This document shows positions 22,509-55,380 of a DNA stretch of 64,000 nucleotides, piece after piece. Source of the DNA: Halarcobacter sp. (GTDB lineage Bacteria; Campylobacterota; Campylobacteria; Campylobacterales; Arcobacteraceae); NCBI GenBank assembly GCA_048571215.1, contig CP182352.1, positions 2,048,001 through 2,112,000 on the forward strand. Reading direction: 5' to 3'. The notes under the pieces are model-generated. The model had not been told where the DNA came from, made no database searches, and worked only from the letters and a program-made list of their open reading frames with translations. The position numbers and the translations under genes are program-made. Position 1 is the first letter of the stretch, and the number at the start of each line of letters is the position of its first letter.

Positions 22509-23234
22509 TTACCTAATATACTTACTTTTAATAAACTTAACAATTATTTCACTAGCTTCCTCAACTGAAAGATTATCACTAGCTATAATTATCTCAGCAT
22601 GTTGTGGTTCTTCATACACATCATTTACACCAGTAAAGTTTTTATACTCACCAGCGAGTGCTTTCTCATATTTTCCTGATTTATCTCTTTTTTTACAAGT
22701 CTCTATATCAGCTTTTACATATACAACTATATTGTTTTTAACCATTTCTCTTATAGCTTTTCTTGACTCTTTATATGGAGATACAAAAGAAGCTACTGTT
22801 GAAATAGAATTGTTTTGAAGTGTTTTAATAAGATGTCCAACCCTATGCATATGTCTATTTCTATCTTCTCTACTATATCCAATATCTGGGATTAAGTCTC
22901 TTACATCTTTACTATCTATTCTCTCAATAGGTATATCTAACTTTTCTAACTCTTTAAAAACTGCATCTGCAATTGTTGTTTTACCTGAAAGAGGAAGTCC
23001 GGTAAACCACAAGTTAAATGGTTCTATTCTTTTTCTTCCCCACTTTACTTTAAACCAAGCTCGTTCATGAGCCCAATAAAGCCCAACTTTTAAGATAGTT
23101 TCAATAAGTCCAGCAGCAATTGCTAAGTCTAATCTTCCGAAAAAGACATAAACAATTATAATAGTTGTTGTTGTTGCAACTGCTCTCCATGAAATACCTT
23201 TTACTATTGATCTTATATTTGTATCTTTGTACAT
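22509..23234 (-). CDS. DUF2061 membrane domain fused to an adenylyl-sulfate kinase-like domain
   Basis: N-terminal RSIVKGISWR...YWAHERAW (DUF2061), then WFTGLPLSGKTT...FVSPY...NFTGVNDVYEEP (CysC fold). Confidence 0.85.
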   Translation of the reverse strand: MYKDTNIRSIVKGISWRAVATTTTIIIVYVFFGRLDLAIAAGLIETILKVGLYWAHERAWFKVKWGRKRIEPFNLWFTGLPLSGKTTIADAVFKELEKLDIPIERIDSKDVRDLIPDIGYSREDRNRHMHRVGHLIKTLQNNSISTVASFVSPYKESRKAIREMVKNNIVVYVKADIETCKKRDKSGKYEKALAGEYKNFTGVNDVYEEPQHAEIIIASDNLSVEEASEIIVKFIKSKYIR

Positions 23235-23237
23235 TTA

Positions 23238-24692
23238 TTATATAACCTTACAACCCCACTCAGGGAAGTTTTCTCTAATATAAGCATTTAATGCAATCTC
23301 AGCTTGTGTATATTCTTTTTGTGGAACAGTCTCTTCTGAACTTTGAACACTATCTATAATCATACCAGCACCAACAGTTGAGTTTGTATATCTATCTATG
23401 ATAATAAAACTTCCTGTATGTCTATTTTCATTATATGGATCAACTGCAATTTGTCTATCTAGTGATAATGTACATTTTGCAATATCATTTAACTCTAAAG
23501 AGTTAGTTGCTAGCTCTTCAAATGTATTTACTTCTTTTTTATACTCTATTGATTTAAATGTACCATTGATAACAGAAGTTGCTCTTTTAATAATATAATT
23601 ACTATTAAGTTCAAGCTTTTTCTCATCCATCCAAACAACCATCACTTCAAGCTTATTTGATACTTGTGGGATAGAGTTTGATTTTACAATCATATCACCT
23701 CTACTGATATCTATCTCATCTTTTAGTGTAATAGTTGTAGCCATTGGTGCAAAGGCTGTTTCTATAGTTTCAACTGTTTCATCTTTTCCTATTGGTCTTA
23801 AATCTTTAATCTCATTTGAAACAATAGATTTTACAACTGAAGTTTTACGTGAAGGTAAAATTGTAATCTCATCACCTACACTAATACTTCCACTTGCAAT
23901 TGTTCCAGAAAATCCTCTAAAGTTTAGATGAGGTCTTGATACATATTGAACTGGTAATCTAAAATCATGATTTTCAGCTTTATGAATATCAATAGTATCT
24001 AATAATTCCATAAGTGGAAGACCTTTATACCAAGTTGATTTTGGTGAATTTGTAAGGATATTATCTCCATCTAATGCAGAGATTGGGATATACTCAAAAT
24101 TGATATCTTCATTATGTGGAAGATTAGGAATAATTGTTTCATAATCTTTTTTTATCTCTTCAAATCTATCTTTGCTAAAATCAACCAAATCCATTTTATT
24201 TATAGCAACAATAAGATTTTTAATCCCAAGAAGAGAAGCTATAAAAGAGTGTCTTTTTGTTTGTGTTAAAACCCCTTGTCTTGCATCAATTAAGATAATA
24301 GCCACATCAGCTGTACTAGCACCCGTTGCCATATTTCTTGTGTATTGTTCATGTCCTGGAGTATCTGCTATGATAAATTTTCTTTTTTCAGTTGAAAAGA
24401 ATCTATAAGCAACATCAATAGTAATACCTTGTTCTCTCTCACTAGCTAATCCATCAACTAAAAGTGCTAAGTCAATTTTATCTCCAGTGGTTCCACTTTT
24501 TTTACTATCTTTTTCAATTGCAGCTAATTGGTCTTCAAAAATCATTTTTGAATCATAAAGTAATCTTCCTATTAGAGTACTTTTCCCATCATCAACTGAA
24601 CCACATGTTATAAATCTTAGTATCTCTTTATTTTCATGTTCTTTTAAATATTGTTCAATATTCTCAGCTATTAAATCTGATTGGTGTGCCAT
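23238..24692 (-). CDS. cysN: Sulfate adenylyltransferase subunit 1
   Basis: TCGSVDDGKSTLIGRLL, EREQGITIDVAYR, DTPGHEQYTRNM and NKMD. Confidence 0.97.
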   Translation of the reverse strand: MAHQSDLIAENIEQYLKEHENKEILRFITCGSVDDGKSTLIGRLLYDSKMIFEDQLAAIEKDSKKSGTTGDKIDLALLVDGLASEREQGITIDVAYRFFSTEKRKFIIADTPGHEQYTRNMATGASTADVAIILIDARQGVLTQTKRHSFIASLLGIKNLIVAINKMDLVDFSKDRFEEIKKDYETIIPNLPHNEDINFEYIPISALDGDNILTNSPKSTWYKGLPLMELLDTIDIHKAENHDFRLPVQYVSRPHLNFRGFSGTIASGSISVGDEITILPSRKTSVVKSIVSNEIKDLRPIGKDETVETIETAFAPMATTITLKDEIDISRGDMIVKSNSIPQVSNKLEVMVVWMDEKKLELNSNYIIKRATSVINGTFKSIEYKKEVNTFEELATNSLELNDIAKCTLSLDRQIAVDPYNENRHTGSFIIIDRYTNSTVGAGMIIDSVQSSEETVPQKEYTQAEIALNAYIRENFPEWGCKVI

Positions 24693-24713
24693 AAAATTCT
24701 ACTCCATTAAATT

Positions 24714-24748
24714 TTTAGTATTCAGTACTCAGAGTTCAGTGTTCAGAA
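24714..24748. repeat. Degenerate 7-bp tandem array (YTCAGTR family), downstream arm of the four-helix-bundle remnant
   Basis: + strand: TTTAGTA TTCAGTA CTCAGAG TTCAGTG TTCAGAA. Confidence 0.85.
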
Positions 24749-24898
24749 CTATGAGTTTATTTTTTGTTGTAAACCAACAATCATTTTTAGTATCTCTTCA
24801 ATCTCTTTTTTCCAAGATAAACCTATTTGTTTCTCTATATATGATATTTCTATACCTATATAGATTTGTGTTATGAGTTCAGCAGAAGATTCTTTGCC
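24749..24898 (-). pseudogene. C-terminal remnant of a four-helix-bundle (23S rRNA IVS / Avd-like) protein gene
   Basis: Manual translation: GKESSAELITQIYIGIEISYIEKQIGLSWKKEIEEILKMIVGLQQKINS*. This matches the family C-terminal pattern (KG)SxxELxTQxYIxxEIGYI...E..EI.KML. No start codon, and the N-terminal part is missing. Confidence 0.8.
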
Positions 24899-24932
24899 TC
24901 TGAATTCTGATTACTAAACTCTGAACACTATT
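24898..24932. repeat. Degenerate 7-bp tandem array, inverted relative to 24714-24748
   Basis: + strand: CTCTGAA TTCTGAT TACTAAA CTCTGAA CACTATT (reverse-complement type of YTCAGTR/TTCAGAG). Confidence 0.85.
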
Positions 24933-24944
24933 TTTAGTCTTTGA

Positions 24945-25886
24945 CTAAAAATACCCCTCTTGTTTTTTCTTCTCCATTGATGCTTCACCATCACTATCTA
25001 TAAGTCTTCCTTGTCTCTCACTAGTTGTACAAATCAACATCTCTTGAATAATCTCAGGGAGTGTTGTTGCTTCACTATTTACTGCACCTGTTAAGGGATA
25101 ACAACCTAGTGTTCTAAATCTAACTTTCTCTTTTTTTGCAGTTTTTCGCAATTCTTCAGGCATTCTATCATCATCAACCATGATTTTTGTGCCCATATAT
25201 TCTACTACTTCACGCTCTTTTGAGAAGTATAAATCAGGAATAGAAATCTCTTCTATATAGATATATTGCCAGATATCAAGTTCTGTCCAGTTTGATATTG
25301 GAAAAACTCTAATAGATTCACCTTTTGTGTGTCTTCCATTATATATATTCCATAACTCTGGTCTTTGGTTTTTTGGATCCCATCTATGGTTTTCATCTCT
25401 AAAAGAGTAGATTCTCTCCTTTGCTCTTGATTTCTCTTCATCCCTTCTTGCTCCACCAAATACTGCATCAAATTTTTGCATATCTAGCATTTGTTTTAGA
25501 CCTTCAGTTTTCATAATATCAGTATGAACAGCACTTCCATGAGTAAAAGGGGAGATATTCATCTCTAAACCTTTTGGATTAGAATAAACAATAAGTTCCA
25601 TTCCAACTTCTTTTGCACGTCTATCTCTAAACTCTATCATCTCTTTAAACTTCCAAGTTGTATCAACATGTACTAATGGAAGGGGTGGAGGAGCTGGATA
25701 AAAGGCTTTTTGTAATATGTGTAGCATTACAGAAGAATCTTTTCCTACTGAGTACAGCATTGCTGGGTTTTGAAACTCTGCTATTACTTCTCTCATTATA
25801 TGTATTGATTCTGCTTCTAGCTGTTTTAAATGGGTAAGTCGATTAGCACTTAATCTTAAGTGCTCAGTGCTCAGTTTTTTTTTCAA
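24945..25886 (-). CDS. cysD: Sulfate adenylyltransferase subunit 2
   Basis: [46 protein letters not shown] and KKQEGYF. TTG start. Confidence 0.97.
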
Positions 25887-25898
25887 ATATATTCCTTT

Positions 25899-26717
25899 TT
25901 ACTTTACTATAAACCAGGGGTTTAAAAGATTAGCTTTGTTATAAACAACAGCTTGCTCTAATATTGAATTTTCAATATTGAATTTTGAATGAAACTGATA
26001 AGCCAGTTTACCACTTTCTCTTACTATTGCATCTGCTGCTGCTGTATCCCACTCCATAGTAGGAGCAAGTCTTGGGTAAATATCAGCTTCACCAGTTGCT
26101 ACCATGCAAAGTTTAAGGCTAGAGCCTTTTGAAACTAGTATTAAGTGTTCAGTTTTTAGTGCTAAGTTATCTATGAAGTTTTGTGTTTCTATAGAAAGGT
26201 GTGATTTACTTGCTACTACTGAAATATTTTCTTTTATATCATTATTTGTATAAATTGGAAGCTTTTCTTTACTGAGAACTGAATACTGAGTACTGATAAC
26301 TTCTTTAAATGCCCCATCACCTTTTTTTGCATAATACATATCACCTAAAGCTGGTGCATATACTACACCTAAAATAGGAGTGTTTTTATATATCAAGGCA
26401 ATATTTACTGTAAACTCATCATTTTTTTTAATAAACTCTTTTGTGCCATCTATTGGATCTATACAAAAGTAGTATTCCCAGTCTTTTCTTATACTATATT
26501 CTGTTTGCTTATTCTCTTCACTCATCAACGGAATCTCTGGATACAATCTATTTAACTCAAAACATATTAATTGGTTTGATTTAGTGTCAGCTTCAGTTAA
26601 AGGTGATTTATCATCCTTATACTCAACACTAAAATCTCTTTTATAAATATCCATTATCAAACTACCAGCTTTTAAAGCAATCTTTTTTATATCTTCAATA
26701 TTTATCTTCTCTATCAA
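25899..26717 (-). CDS. cysQ: 3'(2'),5'-bisphosphate nucleotidase CysQ
   Basis: SPLTEAD, IDPIDGTKEF, VASKSH, GSSLK and PTMEWDTAA. Confidence 0.95.
   Translation of the reverse strand: MIEKINIEDIKKIALKAGSLIMDIYKRDFSVEYKDDKSPLTEADTKSNQLICFELNRLYPEIPLMSEENKQTEYSIRKDWEYYFCIDPIDGTKEFIKKNDEFTVNIALIYKNTPILGVVYAPALGDMYYAKKGDGAFKEVISTQYSVLSKEKLPIYTNNDIKENISVVASKSHLSIETQNFIDNLALKTEHLILVSKGSSLKLCMVATGEADIYPRLAPTMEWDTAAADAIVRESGKLAYQFHSKFNIENSILEQAVVYNKANLLNPWFIVK
26134..26297. repeat. Pair of inverted 7-bp arrays inside cysQ (26134-26168 and 26270-26297)
   Basis: ACTAGTA TTAAGTG TTCAGTT TTTAGTG CTAAGTT, and TACTGAG AACTGAA TACTGAG TACTGAT. Confidence 0.75.
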
Positions 26718-26757
26718 CTTATCCCTTTCATATTTTCAAATAACTAATAACTATTTA

Positions 26758-27381
26758 CTAAATAGCATAATCGTTTTCATCACCTTGTATATATCCATAT
26801 TTTATCAAATGAGTCACTACCAATTCTGCACATTGTTGAATTGTATGCTTGTTGGTTTCTATATGTATTTGTGGGGCTTCGGGAGCTTCATAAGGAGAAT
26901 CTATCCCTGTGAAATTTTTGATAGCACCTTCTCTTGCTTTTTTATATAATCCTTTAGGATCTCTACTTTCACAAATTTCAAGTGGAGTATCAATAAATAC
27001 TTCAATAAATTCATCATATCTAACTAAGCTTCTAGCAATTTGTCTATCTGATTTAAAAGGACTAATAAAAGCTGTCAAAGTTATTAGACCACTATCAACA
27101 AAAAGTTTACTAACCTCTCCAATTCTTCTAATATTTTCTATTCTATCAATTTCTGAAAAACCCAAATCCTTATTTAAACCATGCCTTACATTATCCCCAT
27201 CAAGAAGATATGTTTTAATACCTCTTTTGAAAAGCTCAACTTCAACAGCATTTGCAATAGTAGATTTTCCTGAGCCACTTAATCCTGTAAACCATAAAAT
27301 GCATGGTTTTTGATTAAGTAAACTTAGCCTTTTTTCTTTTGTTATATGTTGTTCATGCCAAACTATATTTTCATCTTTCAA
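26758..27381 (-). CDS. cysC: Adenylyl-sulfate kinase
   Basis: [39 protein letters not shown] and FTGIDSPYE. Confidence 0.97.
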
Positions 27382-38690: not shown

Positions 38691-39747
38691 AACTAACCTT
38701 ATATTTTCCCAAATACCACACAATAGTCTTAACTATGCCAGTATCAAAGTTCTCATCTGCTTTCCATCCAAGTTCATTTTCCAATTTACTTGCATCTATT
38801 GCATATCTTCTATCATGTCCTGCTCTATCTTCTACAAATGTTATTAACTCTTTGTAGGATTGTAATTGGTTATTTGTTATTTGTATATTAGTAGAGATTG
38901 GTTTAACTTCATCCAATATTTCACAAATTCTGTTTACTATTTGCAGATTTGTTCTTTCATTTCTTCCACCTATATTATAGGTTTGCCCTTTTAATCCCTT
39001 ATGGAAAACTAAGTCTATACCTTTACAATGATCTAGTACATACAACCAATCTCTTATATTTTTTCCATCTCCATATATTGGTATAGGATTTCCTTGTAGA
39101 GCATTTCTTATAATTGTTGGTATTAATTTCTCATCATGTTGTTTTGGTCCATAATTATTTGAGCAGTTTGTGATTACTGCGTTTAGTCCAAAGGTTTCTA
39201 CATAAGATCTTACTATCATATCACTTGATGCTTTTGAAGCAGAGTATGGAGAATTTGGTGCATATGGTGTAGACTCATGGAAAAGATCATTTGGGTCTTC
39301 ACTTAAGGTTCCATACACTTCATCTGTTGAGATATGATGAAATCTACAATCTTGGTACTTTTTTTTATATTCAAAGGGTTTATTCATCCAATATTTATAT
39401 GCCACATCTACTAAGGTATATGTTCCATTTACATTTGTTTCTATAAATACTCCTGGATTTTTTATACTATTATCCACATGTGATTCTGCTGCGAAGTGAA
39501 TTACACCTCTTATATCATATTCAGAAAAAATAAATTCAACTAATTCTCTATTACAGATATCACCTTTTATAAATTTATATCTCGGATGATTTTCAACTTC
39601 TTTTAGGTTTTCTAAATCACCTGCGTATGTTAGAAGATCTAGGTTTATTATATTACAATCTTGATATTTTTCTAAAAAATATGGCACGAAGTTACTTCCT
39701 ATAAAGCCTGCGCATCCTGTTACTAATATTGTTTTATTATTAAACAT
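38677..39747 (-). CDS. rfbB: dTDP-glucose 4,6-dehydratase
   Basis: [35 protein letters not shown] and [12 protein letters not shown]. Confidence 0.97.
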
Positions 39748-41784: not shown

Positions 41785-42922
41785 AATAACTCATAATTTT
41801 ATATCCACCATCTTTTAGATAAGTGTCTTTTTTCATTAGTTTTAAATCACTTGCCATCATATCATTTACTAAGTCTTGAAGTTTATACTCTCTATTCCAT
41901 CCTAATTTAGTTTCAGCTTTTGTAGGGTCTCCTAGTAGCAAGTCTACTTCTGTTGGTCTAAAGTACCTTGAGTCTACTTCTACTACAACAGTGTTCAGTA
42001 CTAAGTGTTCAATGCTCAGCCCTAATGATTTTACTTTCTCTTCATCTATACTATCAATAATACCTTTTTCATCTACACCTTTTCCTTCAAATCTTAGCTT
42101 TATCCCTACGTAGGCAAAAGCGAATTTTACGAAGTCTCTTACAGTTGTTGTTTGTCCTGTTGCTATTACCCAATCTTCTGGTTCATCTGCTTGAAGAATC
42201 ATCCACATCATCTTTACATAATCTTTTGCATGTCCCCAGTCTCTTTTTGCATCTAAGTTTCCAAGGTATAATTTATCTTGAAGGTTTAGTGCTATTTTAG
42301 AAGCTGCTCTTGTAATTTTTCTTGTAACAAAAGTTTCACCTCTTACTGGGCTTTCATGGTTAAAAAGGATTCCATTACAAGCGAACATACCATATGCTTC
42401 TCTATAATTTACTGTTATCCAGTATGCGTACATTTTAGCAACTGCATATGGACTTCTTGGGTAAAAAGGAGTTGTTTCACTTTGAGGTGTTTCTTGTACT
42501 TTTCCATATAATTCAGAGGTACTTGCTTGATATATTTTTGTTTTATTAGCAAGTCCTAATAATTTTACTGCTTCAAGGATTCTAAGTGTTCCTGTTCCAT
42601 CTGCGTTTGCTACATATTCTGGTGTCTCAAAAGAAACTGCTACATGAGACATTGCAGCTAAATTATAGATTTCATCTGGTTGTGTCTCTTGAATAATTCT
42701 TGTTAGGTTCATAGAATCTGTCATATCACCATAATGAAGTATTAGATTTCTATTTTCTACATGTGGATCTTGGTAAAGGTGATCTATTCTATCTGTATTA
42801 AACAAAGAACTTCTTCTTTTTATACCATGTACTATATATCCTTTTTTTAGCAAAAACTCTGCTAAATAGCTTCCATCTTGTCCTGTTATCCCTGTTATTA
42901 AGGCTACTTTTTGTTCTGCCAT
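41777..42922 (-). CDS. gmd: GDP-mannose 4,6-dehydratase
   Basis: [32 protein letters not shown] and [17 protein letters not shown]. Confidence 0.98.
41987..42021. repeat. 7-bp array (YTCAGTR family) in frame inside gmd
   Basis: AACAGTG TTCAGTA CTAAGTG TTCAATG CTCAGCC, encoding [12 protein letters not shown]. Confidence 0.75.
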
Positions 42923-55293: not shown

Positions 55294-55328
55294 AATGAAA
55301 AATGAAAAGTGAAAAATGAAAAATGATA
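55294..55328. repeat. 7-bp tandem array (AATGAAA) in the dnaB leader
   Basis: AATGAAA AATGAAA AGTGAAA AATGAAA AATGATA, followed by the complementary TTCATTTTCAAATTCACT. Confidence 0.9.
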
Positions 55329-55380
55329 ACTTCATTTTCAAATTCACTAGACACAAAACACCTCTTCTCCTTTAAACTTT

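Follow-up and report, generated by a model that had tools for sequence, protein, structure and literature searches.

Why should cysD and cysN, genes that are normally adjacent, lie far apart in a Halarcobacter sp., and what is the sequence that separates them? We examined a window of 64,000 nt (C1:2048001-2112000) of the complete, 3.61-Mb genome of this strain (G000, 28.5% G+C). On the minus strand the gene order was cysC-cysQ-cysD-[insert]-cysN-cysC-like-galE, within a surface-glycan cluster. The spacing from the cysD stop (24945) to the cysN start (24692) was 252 nt, in line with the ~250 bp given by a first-pass annotation of this DNA, and the junctions of relatives were mostly empty. A promoter and terminator scan gave no signal above shuffles. 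The insert and its two host genes contained the following features:

24945..25886, minus strand: cysD, the upstream host gene (NCBIfam match above cut-off; NF009214, 513.5 bits, cut-off 413)
24929..24953, minus strand: perfect 11-bp hairpin spanning the cysD stop, loop AAA on the mRNA (sequence)
24898..24932, minus strand: left arm, five TTCAGAG-type heptamers (sequence, complementarity, fold)
24893..24898, minus strand: junction of a 202-bp deletion, with 1-3 nt of ambiguity (alignment with G061, G169 and G033; contig of run X6)
24749..24898, minus strand: remnant of a four-helix-bundle gene, 49 codons plus TAG (profile matches, frame reading, orthologue model)
24714..24748, minus strand: right arm, five CTCTGAA/TACTGAA-type heptamers, complement of the left arm (sequence, complementarity, fold)
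24702..24705, minus strand: GGAG, putative cysN ribosome-binding site, outside the long stem (sequence)
23238..24692, minus strand: cysN, the downstream host gene (NCBIfam match above cut-off)

The hairpin over the cysD stop had the perfect 11-bp stem described in the annotation, but TTT is the plus-strand reading of its loop. The stem's 5' strand is the final 9 nt of cysD, and its 3' strand repeats the cysD end in inverted orientation. In orthologues the stem was kept with altered pairs, and the loops were TTT, GGA, GGAA and GAAA. The two five-unit arrays were complementary, as had been claimed (best ungapped: 75% over 32 nt and 86% over 21 nt). When 24690-24970 was folded as RNA, the arms were predicted to pair stably over 17 bp, a 2x2 loop and 8 bp (-63.5 kcal/mol, z -5.8, 0/200 shuffles equally stable), and an intact copy in a relative (G033) also gave a predicted arm stem (z -4.7). 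The arms have the form of terminal inverted repeats, as in MITEs and insertion sequences, and of complementary termini in a long stem around an ORF, as in the intervening sequences (IVS) of rRNA. Separately, sequence within the remnant at 24873-24924 was a 12/15 quasi-palindromic partner of the left arm, and a single contig of RNA run X5 folded back exactly at this quasi-palindrome.

The stop-to-stop frame between the arms (24749-24910, 53 codons) had no start codon at its 5' end, which bears out the start-less 49-codon frame first reported. Its identity as a four-helix-bundle fragment was supported by profile search. The remnant matched positions 62-108 of 109 of TIGR02436 (E 3.5e-6, 27.2 bits, cut-off 24) and 66-105 of 106 of PF05635 at 25.5 bits, which is below the gathering threshold of 33.8. 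The intact orthologue scored 109 bits with TIGR02436 and 175 with PRK12275.1-6 (cut-off 124) and was modelled as four helices, of which the remnant represents the last two; the window copy has neither the complete fold nor a start. Three relatives with the intact gene (G033, G061 and G169) and a marine contig (run X6, ~94% identical, gene intact) differed from the window by one 202-nt block. The deletion begins directly after the left arm and removed the ribosome site, the start codon and ~65 of the 115-117 codons.

A 349-nt contig with 0 differences spanned the deletion junction in runs X1, X3 and X2, all from one study that is possibly the source of the assembly, and an assembly error as the cause of the remnant was rejected on these contigs. 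The remnant showed no internal stop and a dN/dS of 0.06-0.09 against intact copies, and the deletion is therefore recent, too recent for the remnant to show relaxed selection. Intact copies had dN/dS values of 0.03-0.05, a purifying selection as strong as that on cysD and cysN. The annotation had stated that most of the ORF was deleted while the arms were kept. This describes the window, but arm retention was not a rule, as remnants at another site had lost one or both arms, and with so recent a deletion it cannot be taken as a sign of selection. Apart from its stem the remnant is probably inert. It is probably also harmless, since cysN has a ribosome site of its own and the genome contains a further, near-identical cysDN copy.

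Contigs of RNA run X5 covered 24702-24890 at a depth of 3-8 and cannot show transcription or transcript ends; the fold-back contig of this run touches the deletion junction. The intact paralogous cassette gene lay outside the contigs of RNA runs X5 and X16, which carries no weight. Splicing or precise excision was rejected as an explanation of an X5 joint that skips 24693-24945. This joint had 11 differences in 75 nt and was also present in DNA run X3, and it therefore comes from the empty allele of another organism.

Comparison of the cysD-cysN junction across relatives showed intact, remnant and empty states, all three of which the annotation had envisaged. In a first search, 28 of 29 junctions were empty, with the two genes overlapping or a few bases apart, and the remaining one (G033) held an intact 117-aa gene between the same arms. 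G061 and G169 carried an intact orthologue at the same junction. Matches to cysD and cysN were obtained in 131 of 184 family genomes; inserts were found in at least 8 of these 131 (G000 twice, G033, G061, G169, G186, G149, G162 and G111). G111 was an independent remnant, in which both arms and the initial 26 codons of the gene survive. Inserts at this junction were also seen in two genomes from another family, one intact (G477) and one with the left arm only (G041). Of the outcomes that would have spoken against the annotation, namely no four-helix match, no stable arm pairing or intact homologues without arrays, none was seen.

Cross-pairing of the arms of nine cysD-cysN cassettes gave a block-diagonal pattern with four arm types and the best pairing within each type. 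The second cysDN pair of G000 (97% and 99% identical) carried a different, intact cassette with TAGTCGA/TCGACTA arms (G000:C1:3266929-3267405; L031, L095); it lies in a sulfate-assimilation operon, and its right arm encodes the CysN N-terminus. The 5' parts of the two G000 cysN copies showed no synonymous difference over 120 codons, which suggests gene conversion between them. The cysD and cysN of the window differed from the empty allele of G110 by a dS of 0.18-0.23 and from the cassette-sharing alleles of G033 and G061 by 0.6-0.9. The window flanks are nearer to an empty allele than to those sharing the cassette, and cassette and flanks therefore differ in history. As to a possible target-site duplication, the 12 nt ahead of the cysN start resembled the cysD end on visual inspection (10/12 in G186, 9/12 in G149, with gaps in the window), a likeness that a ribosome site with an A+T spacer would show anyway.

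We then took the cassette design across the family, where TIGR02436 matches were present in 45 of 184 genomes. Period-7 arrays (>=10 bits) were found upstream of 46/56 family genes, downstream of 49/56 and on both sides of 47/56, compared with at most 3 (upstream) and 10 (downstream) of 56 genes for control periods 4-12. The consensus heptamers of the two sides were complementary (6 or 7 of 7) in 32/47 cassettes, against 10% of mismatched pairs, and 34/47 had 4-5 units on each side. More distant loci had both arrays in 38/58 cases, complementary in 23/38. The family counts leave out the weak Avd-like L089-L092 and the fragments L087, L088, L093 and the second half of L041; the near-duplicates L048 and L061 were dropped from the array, right-arm-in-coding-sequence and hairpin counts. 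A perfect hairpin of >=8 bp over the upstream stop was present in 13/50 cassettes (mostly from two sites) and in 108/2310 ordinary genes. The 3' strand of these hairpins was the inverted end of the host gene and tracked host substitutions.

The cassettes occupied many different junctions, many of them in glycan clusters. The sites include what we take, from the sequences, to be murF-HIT, pdxA, ychF, hypC and an rRNA trailer. A second site in the genus, presumably the murF-HIT junction, was again found empty, intact (G017, G005, G019) and decayed (G024, G012; one or both arms lost). In a 25-row protein tree the cysD-cysN cassettes did not form one group, the junction requiring 4 changes, and the arm type followed the protein clade. 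Proteins ~70% identical carried many different heptamers, and 81% identical proteins were named from Francisella. The four-helix protein was the only cargo of the cassette, and each cassette type was usually single-copy. No transposase, recombinase or reverse transcriptase was found in the ORF lists of the two G000 cassette loci, and an Rfam scan of the cassette loci L002, L031, L049 and L095 gave no match.

The intact orthologue was modelled as a four-helix bundle with a pLDDT of 95 (60-row alignment). It shares sequence and fold with XCC0516 (PDB 2GSC; E 2.9e-15), BT_0352 (2RLD) and the TIGR02436 / PRK12275 proteins, with a TM of about 0.85 for 2GSC and 2RLD, both of which contain five chains; unlike these, the window copy is a start-less C-terminal half. 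The same fold is found in Avd of diversity-generating retroelements (4DWL, 8UB7; TM 0.77-0.78, 13% identity), to which PF05635 has been linked (PMC10053308). Avd is described as a pentamer that binds RNA, with flipped-out bases lodged in the crevices that separate its five protomers (10.1101/2023.10.23.563531). However, in contrast to a diversity-generating retroelement, neither a reverse transcriptase nor a template or variable repeat was seen next to the gene in the ORF lists, and a crude reverse transcriptase motif scan of G000 gave one implausible match.

Heptamer arrays without a four-helix gene were also present in the window, and four of them lie within coding sequences of the same operon:

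25842..25877, minus strand: right-arm-type heptamers, in frame, in a 10-residue N-terminal extension of CysD (translation)
26262..26303, minus strand: in-frame cysQ insert of 10 aa, left-arm-type (TCAG) heptamers (cysQ allele comparison)
26133..26168, minus strand: cysQ right-arm-type run that replaces host codons (+2 aa; cysQ allele comparison)
25956..25991, minus strand: second in-frame cysQ insert (+9 aa), ATTCAAA type (cysQ allele comparison)

The window CysD has 313 aa and that of the paralogue 303 aa. In cysQ, the right-arm-type run lies ~100 nt downstream of the complementary insert. The insert was present in 6 of 40 family alleles; both runs were of one type within an allele, and the type varied between alleles (TCAG in G000 and G033, TTAG in G117, TTTGAA in G187, TAGT in G149). 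In four of the six inserted alleles, with three different heptamers, the two runs paired at z -3.1 to -4.5 when compared with synonymous-codon shuffles. Pairing had decayed in the window (-1.1) and in G186 (+1.8), and 0/24 uninserted alleles fell below -2.3, the test taking in 30 of the 40 alleles. A cognate cassette was clear in three of the six genomes (G000, G033, G149), partial in G186 and not found in G117 or G187; the cysQ runs of G149 matched two of its own cassettes and those of G033 two of its own. The cysQ arms enclose host codons and are therefore not simple cassette leftovers. In a tree of 40 rows with the insert columns removed, the insert required 5 changes for 6 rows, and a single clade was not rejected (AU p 0.208). 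A long-range fold that paired the cysQ insert with the cassette right arm 1.5 kb away was not trusted.

Arrays away from the cassette were enriched in genomes with the cognate gene. TTTTCAT-type arrays occurred in 10/15 cognate genomes and 3/25 with other four-helix types, and CTGA/CTTA-type arrays in 6/10 cognate genomes and 1/13 without that type; the Fisher values (0.001 and 0.019) come from a hand tally and overstate the case, since the groups were defined post hoc, related genomes are not independent of one another and a good many of the genomes are incomplete. Reversed control patterns gave few matches in most genomes. TTTTCAT-type arrays were also present in 24 of 169 other genomes, including G000, and CTGA/CTTA-type arrays in seven genomes in which no cognate gene was found (G205, G120, G147, G149, G117, G156 and G187). 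The orphan arrays were located behind 5S rRNA (G061), at junctions of convergent genes and, read in frame, within the genes of sugar enzymes.

We read the locus as a recently broken copy of a foldback cassette, the intact form of which is likely to be a selfish, self-recognising element that has no transposase and whose pentameric product would bind the heptamers. We give this reading a probability of about 0.55. An intact gene at the same spot in relatives and same-type runs elsewhere in several of the carriers point to a four-helix family that likely recognises its own repeats and possibly spreads them. The patchy, cross-phylum distribution, the frequent decay and the gene-less arms alongside of the cassette's own type all speak for a selfish cassette. 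Signs of mobility in the sequences are the many junctions occupied, the split protein tree, the similarity to Francisella proteins, the dS mismatch of flanks and cassette and the paralogue with a different cassette. On the other side, an arm type that follows the protein clade is expected from linkage alone, proteins ~70% identical differ widely in their heptamers, orphan arrays also occur in genomes without a detectable cognate gene, the ORF lists of the two loci showed no mobility enzymes, target duplication was not clear, and the types are usually single-copy.

The 7-nt period of the arms does not fit the pitch of duplex DNA. By analogy with 2GSC and 2RLD the four-helix protein would act as a pentamer, and from five subunits, arms of 4-5 units and the 7-nt period we infer that one heptamer may be bound per subunit on single-stranded nucleic acid. 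The protein would bind its own arms, and binding might help to place new copies of the arms, or of entire cassettes, at other stop/start junctions, a placement that would let the neighbouring genes survive. The inverted host-gene end at the left boundary hints at a template-switch step in this copying. Between cysDN alleles, cassettes could move by ordinary recombination in the conserved flanks. After the 202-bp deletion, the remaining arms are predicted to pair in the operon mRNA.

The cassette could instead benefit its host as a post-transcriptional regulator, with the pentamer on the left arm blocking the stem and tuning RNase III cleavage or the translation of genes downstream, and with the other arrays forming a regulon under selection in long glycan and sulfur operons. 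The strength of selection on the intact gene, the constancy of 4-5 units per arm, the pairing of cysQ arrays in inserted alleles only and the many sites in glycan clusters would all suit such a role, as would the downstream start codons, which often overlap the cassette stop. However, family matches were confined to a minority of the genomes, the sites were functionally arbitrary, loss and decay were common, and the cysQ stem of G186 had decayed although its cognate gene was intact. We consider regulation improbable.

The annotation had likened the insert to an rRNA IVS, and this kinship of design held. In the IVS of Coxiella burnetii, RNase III cleaves a stem of 28 bp, tandem heptamers precede the ORF, and one strain has a 176-bp deletion in the ORF (PMC4990558). 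S23p-bearing 23S rRNA IVSs (Coxiella burnetii, Leptospira) likewise place a PF05635 ORF inside complementary arms, and they share with the cassettes a patchy distribution, tandem heptamers ahead of the ORF and, in some strains, deletions within it (PMC4990558). In contrast to an rRNA IVS, the cassette lies in a protein-coding operon, between cysD and cysN, and has five-unit arrays on both sides, a right arm that is often translated and, where intact, a strongly conserved ORF.

If the insert were the mRNA counterpart of such an IVS, RNase III would cut both arms, loop out a dispensable ORF and split the cysD and cysN messages. The predicted stem of 17 + 8 bp, an RNase III-like gene in G000 (motif match), the separate cysN ribosome site in the window arm type, a hairpin at the cysD stop that could protect a processed 3' end and the retention of both arms in the two cysD-cysN remnants are consistent with this, and there is a precedent in Correia-element repeats, which RNase III cleaves within mRNA (PMC10969869). 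However, in 18 of 47 cassettes, including the second one of G000, the right arm was the start of the next coding sequence, whose only start codon lies in the loop, and excision would therefore behead that gene (this count also leaves out L057, arrays <10 bits and two loci without a downstream ORF). Arm duplexes had z < -3 in 32/57 loci with no preference for the transcribed strand (34/57), so that strand bias gave no signal by which to decide between pairing as RNA and as DNA. The ORF is under strong purifying selection and hence not dispensable cargo, remnants elsewhere (G024, G012) had lost arms, and the contigs gave no readable processing signal. Excision by RNase III is quite unlikely as the explanation of the cassettes and unlikely to be their general rule; cutting of the window stem as a side effect is possible.

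The selfish-cassette reading also has to be set beside known repeats. MITE-like repeats (Correia, ERIC, Rickettsia palindromic elements) are described as gene-less hairpins after stop codons and as in-frame insertions in enzymes, with possible RNase processing of the host mRNA (PMC10969869), and the arrays resemble them in these respects. Unlike MITEs, however, the cassettes have arms built of heptamer arrays, the form that looks autonomous codes for a four-helix bundle and no transposase, and no clear target duplication was seen at the cassettes. Tandem heptamers such as TAACTGA have been reported from Beggiatoaceae, Cyanobacteria and Bacteroidetes, in runs of 2-6 upstream of starts and inside ORFs and patchy across phyla, much as here, with S1, Csp or CsrA as proposed binders (PMC4679880). 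That paper leaves the binder open, and the terms 'helix bundle', 'intervening' and 'S23' do not occur in it. No account of such cassettes outside rRNA was found in the literature searched, which covered few subscription journals.

A neutral by-product of slippage or template switching near an old inserted gene, with no protein partner and with the type match due to shared horizontal transfer of the glycan cluster, is very unlikely: the X5 fold-back contig at the left arm marks a region that invites template switching, hairpin loops flip between AAA and TTT among orthologues, pure slippage arrays exist (G020, G121) and the cysQ inserts may have one origin, but the units, though degenerate, stay in phase, the two arms switch type in concert, arrays of matching type are found at a distance from the cluster (behind 5S rRNA in G061, at many G033 loci) and the reversed control patterns gave few matches in most genomes.

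By itself the remnant is an ordinary pseudogene, and its value is as an entry point to a class. Under the selfish-cassette reading this class links a large protein family whose function is unknown with two further puzzles, the excess of heptamers in bacteria and the origin of rRNA IVSs. The locus is a compact natural experiment: a single junction offers four arm types together with empty, intact and twice-deleted alleles, one genome contains cassettes of two types, and the neighbouring gene has matched in-frame arrays. It also illustrates how enzymes can gain short peptides. What is new here is the series of alleles at a single junction, the in-frame pair of matching type that surrounds native cysQ codons, and the reciprocal counts of gene type and orphan type. 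More speculatively, PF05635 pentamers in general might read 5 x 7-nt single-stranded arrays sequence-specifically and drive a family of elements that lack a transposase and write matched arm pairs into host genes, in cysQ even on either side of native codons, with rRNA IVSs as one landing site. We regard this as doubtful; were it true, the heptamer repeats of each genome would be a record of the four-helix cassettes it once carried.

Several further arrays were observed. In the window, a lone left-arm-type (TTAGTTA-like) array stood directly after the cysC stop and before cysQ (26737-26760), and G033 had a longer similar run at the same position. In-frame runs of CTGA type in gmd (41984-42028) and ACAAATA type in rfbB (38857-38889) recurred in a second copy of each gene, near C1:686 kb and 693 kb. 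An orphan AATGAAA x5 array (55294-55329), between genes that we take to be ispG and dnaB, had 13 matches of its type in G000 and no cognate gene. G061 (L145, L175-L178) carried near-identical CTGA arrays at five places, one ~110 nt behind a 5S rRNA (Rfam), whose flanks the other four share. CTGA arrays in G149 (L139, L184, L185, L186), followed by a CC-AAA-GG hairpin, lay directly upstream of small two-gene units that look like toxin-antitoxin pairs, an arrangement that resembles a cassette array.

At the second genus site, where relatives have a TTTTCAT-type cassette, L273 (G000:C1:2045049-2045067) had no more than five bases that match the beginning of the cassette hairpin. These may be a scar left when such a cassette was cleanly lost; other relatives had an unrelated palindromic repeat there. 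The unrelated four-helix proteins of L083 and L086 shared an 8-residue insertion at the conserved S-N-I-A-E segment, which may be an assembly or adapter artefact. A CRISPR array of at least 28 repeats in G000 (L274, C1:1585500-1587680) had three gene-less heptamer hairpins fused to partial repeats at its trailer end. These were rejected as insertions with a 19-bp duplication, since G017 had the same hairpin and left flank in a stretch without a CRISPR array, and microhomology with the repeat explains them. Finally, two adenylyl-sulfate kinase genes (22509-23234 and 26758-27381) bracket the cys block of the window. One of them has an additional N-terminal domain of ~65 aa, and the junction upstream of this extended gene was a further cassette site in relatives (L046, L053, L062).
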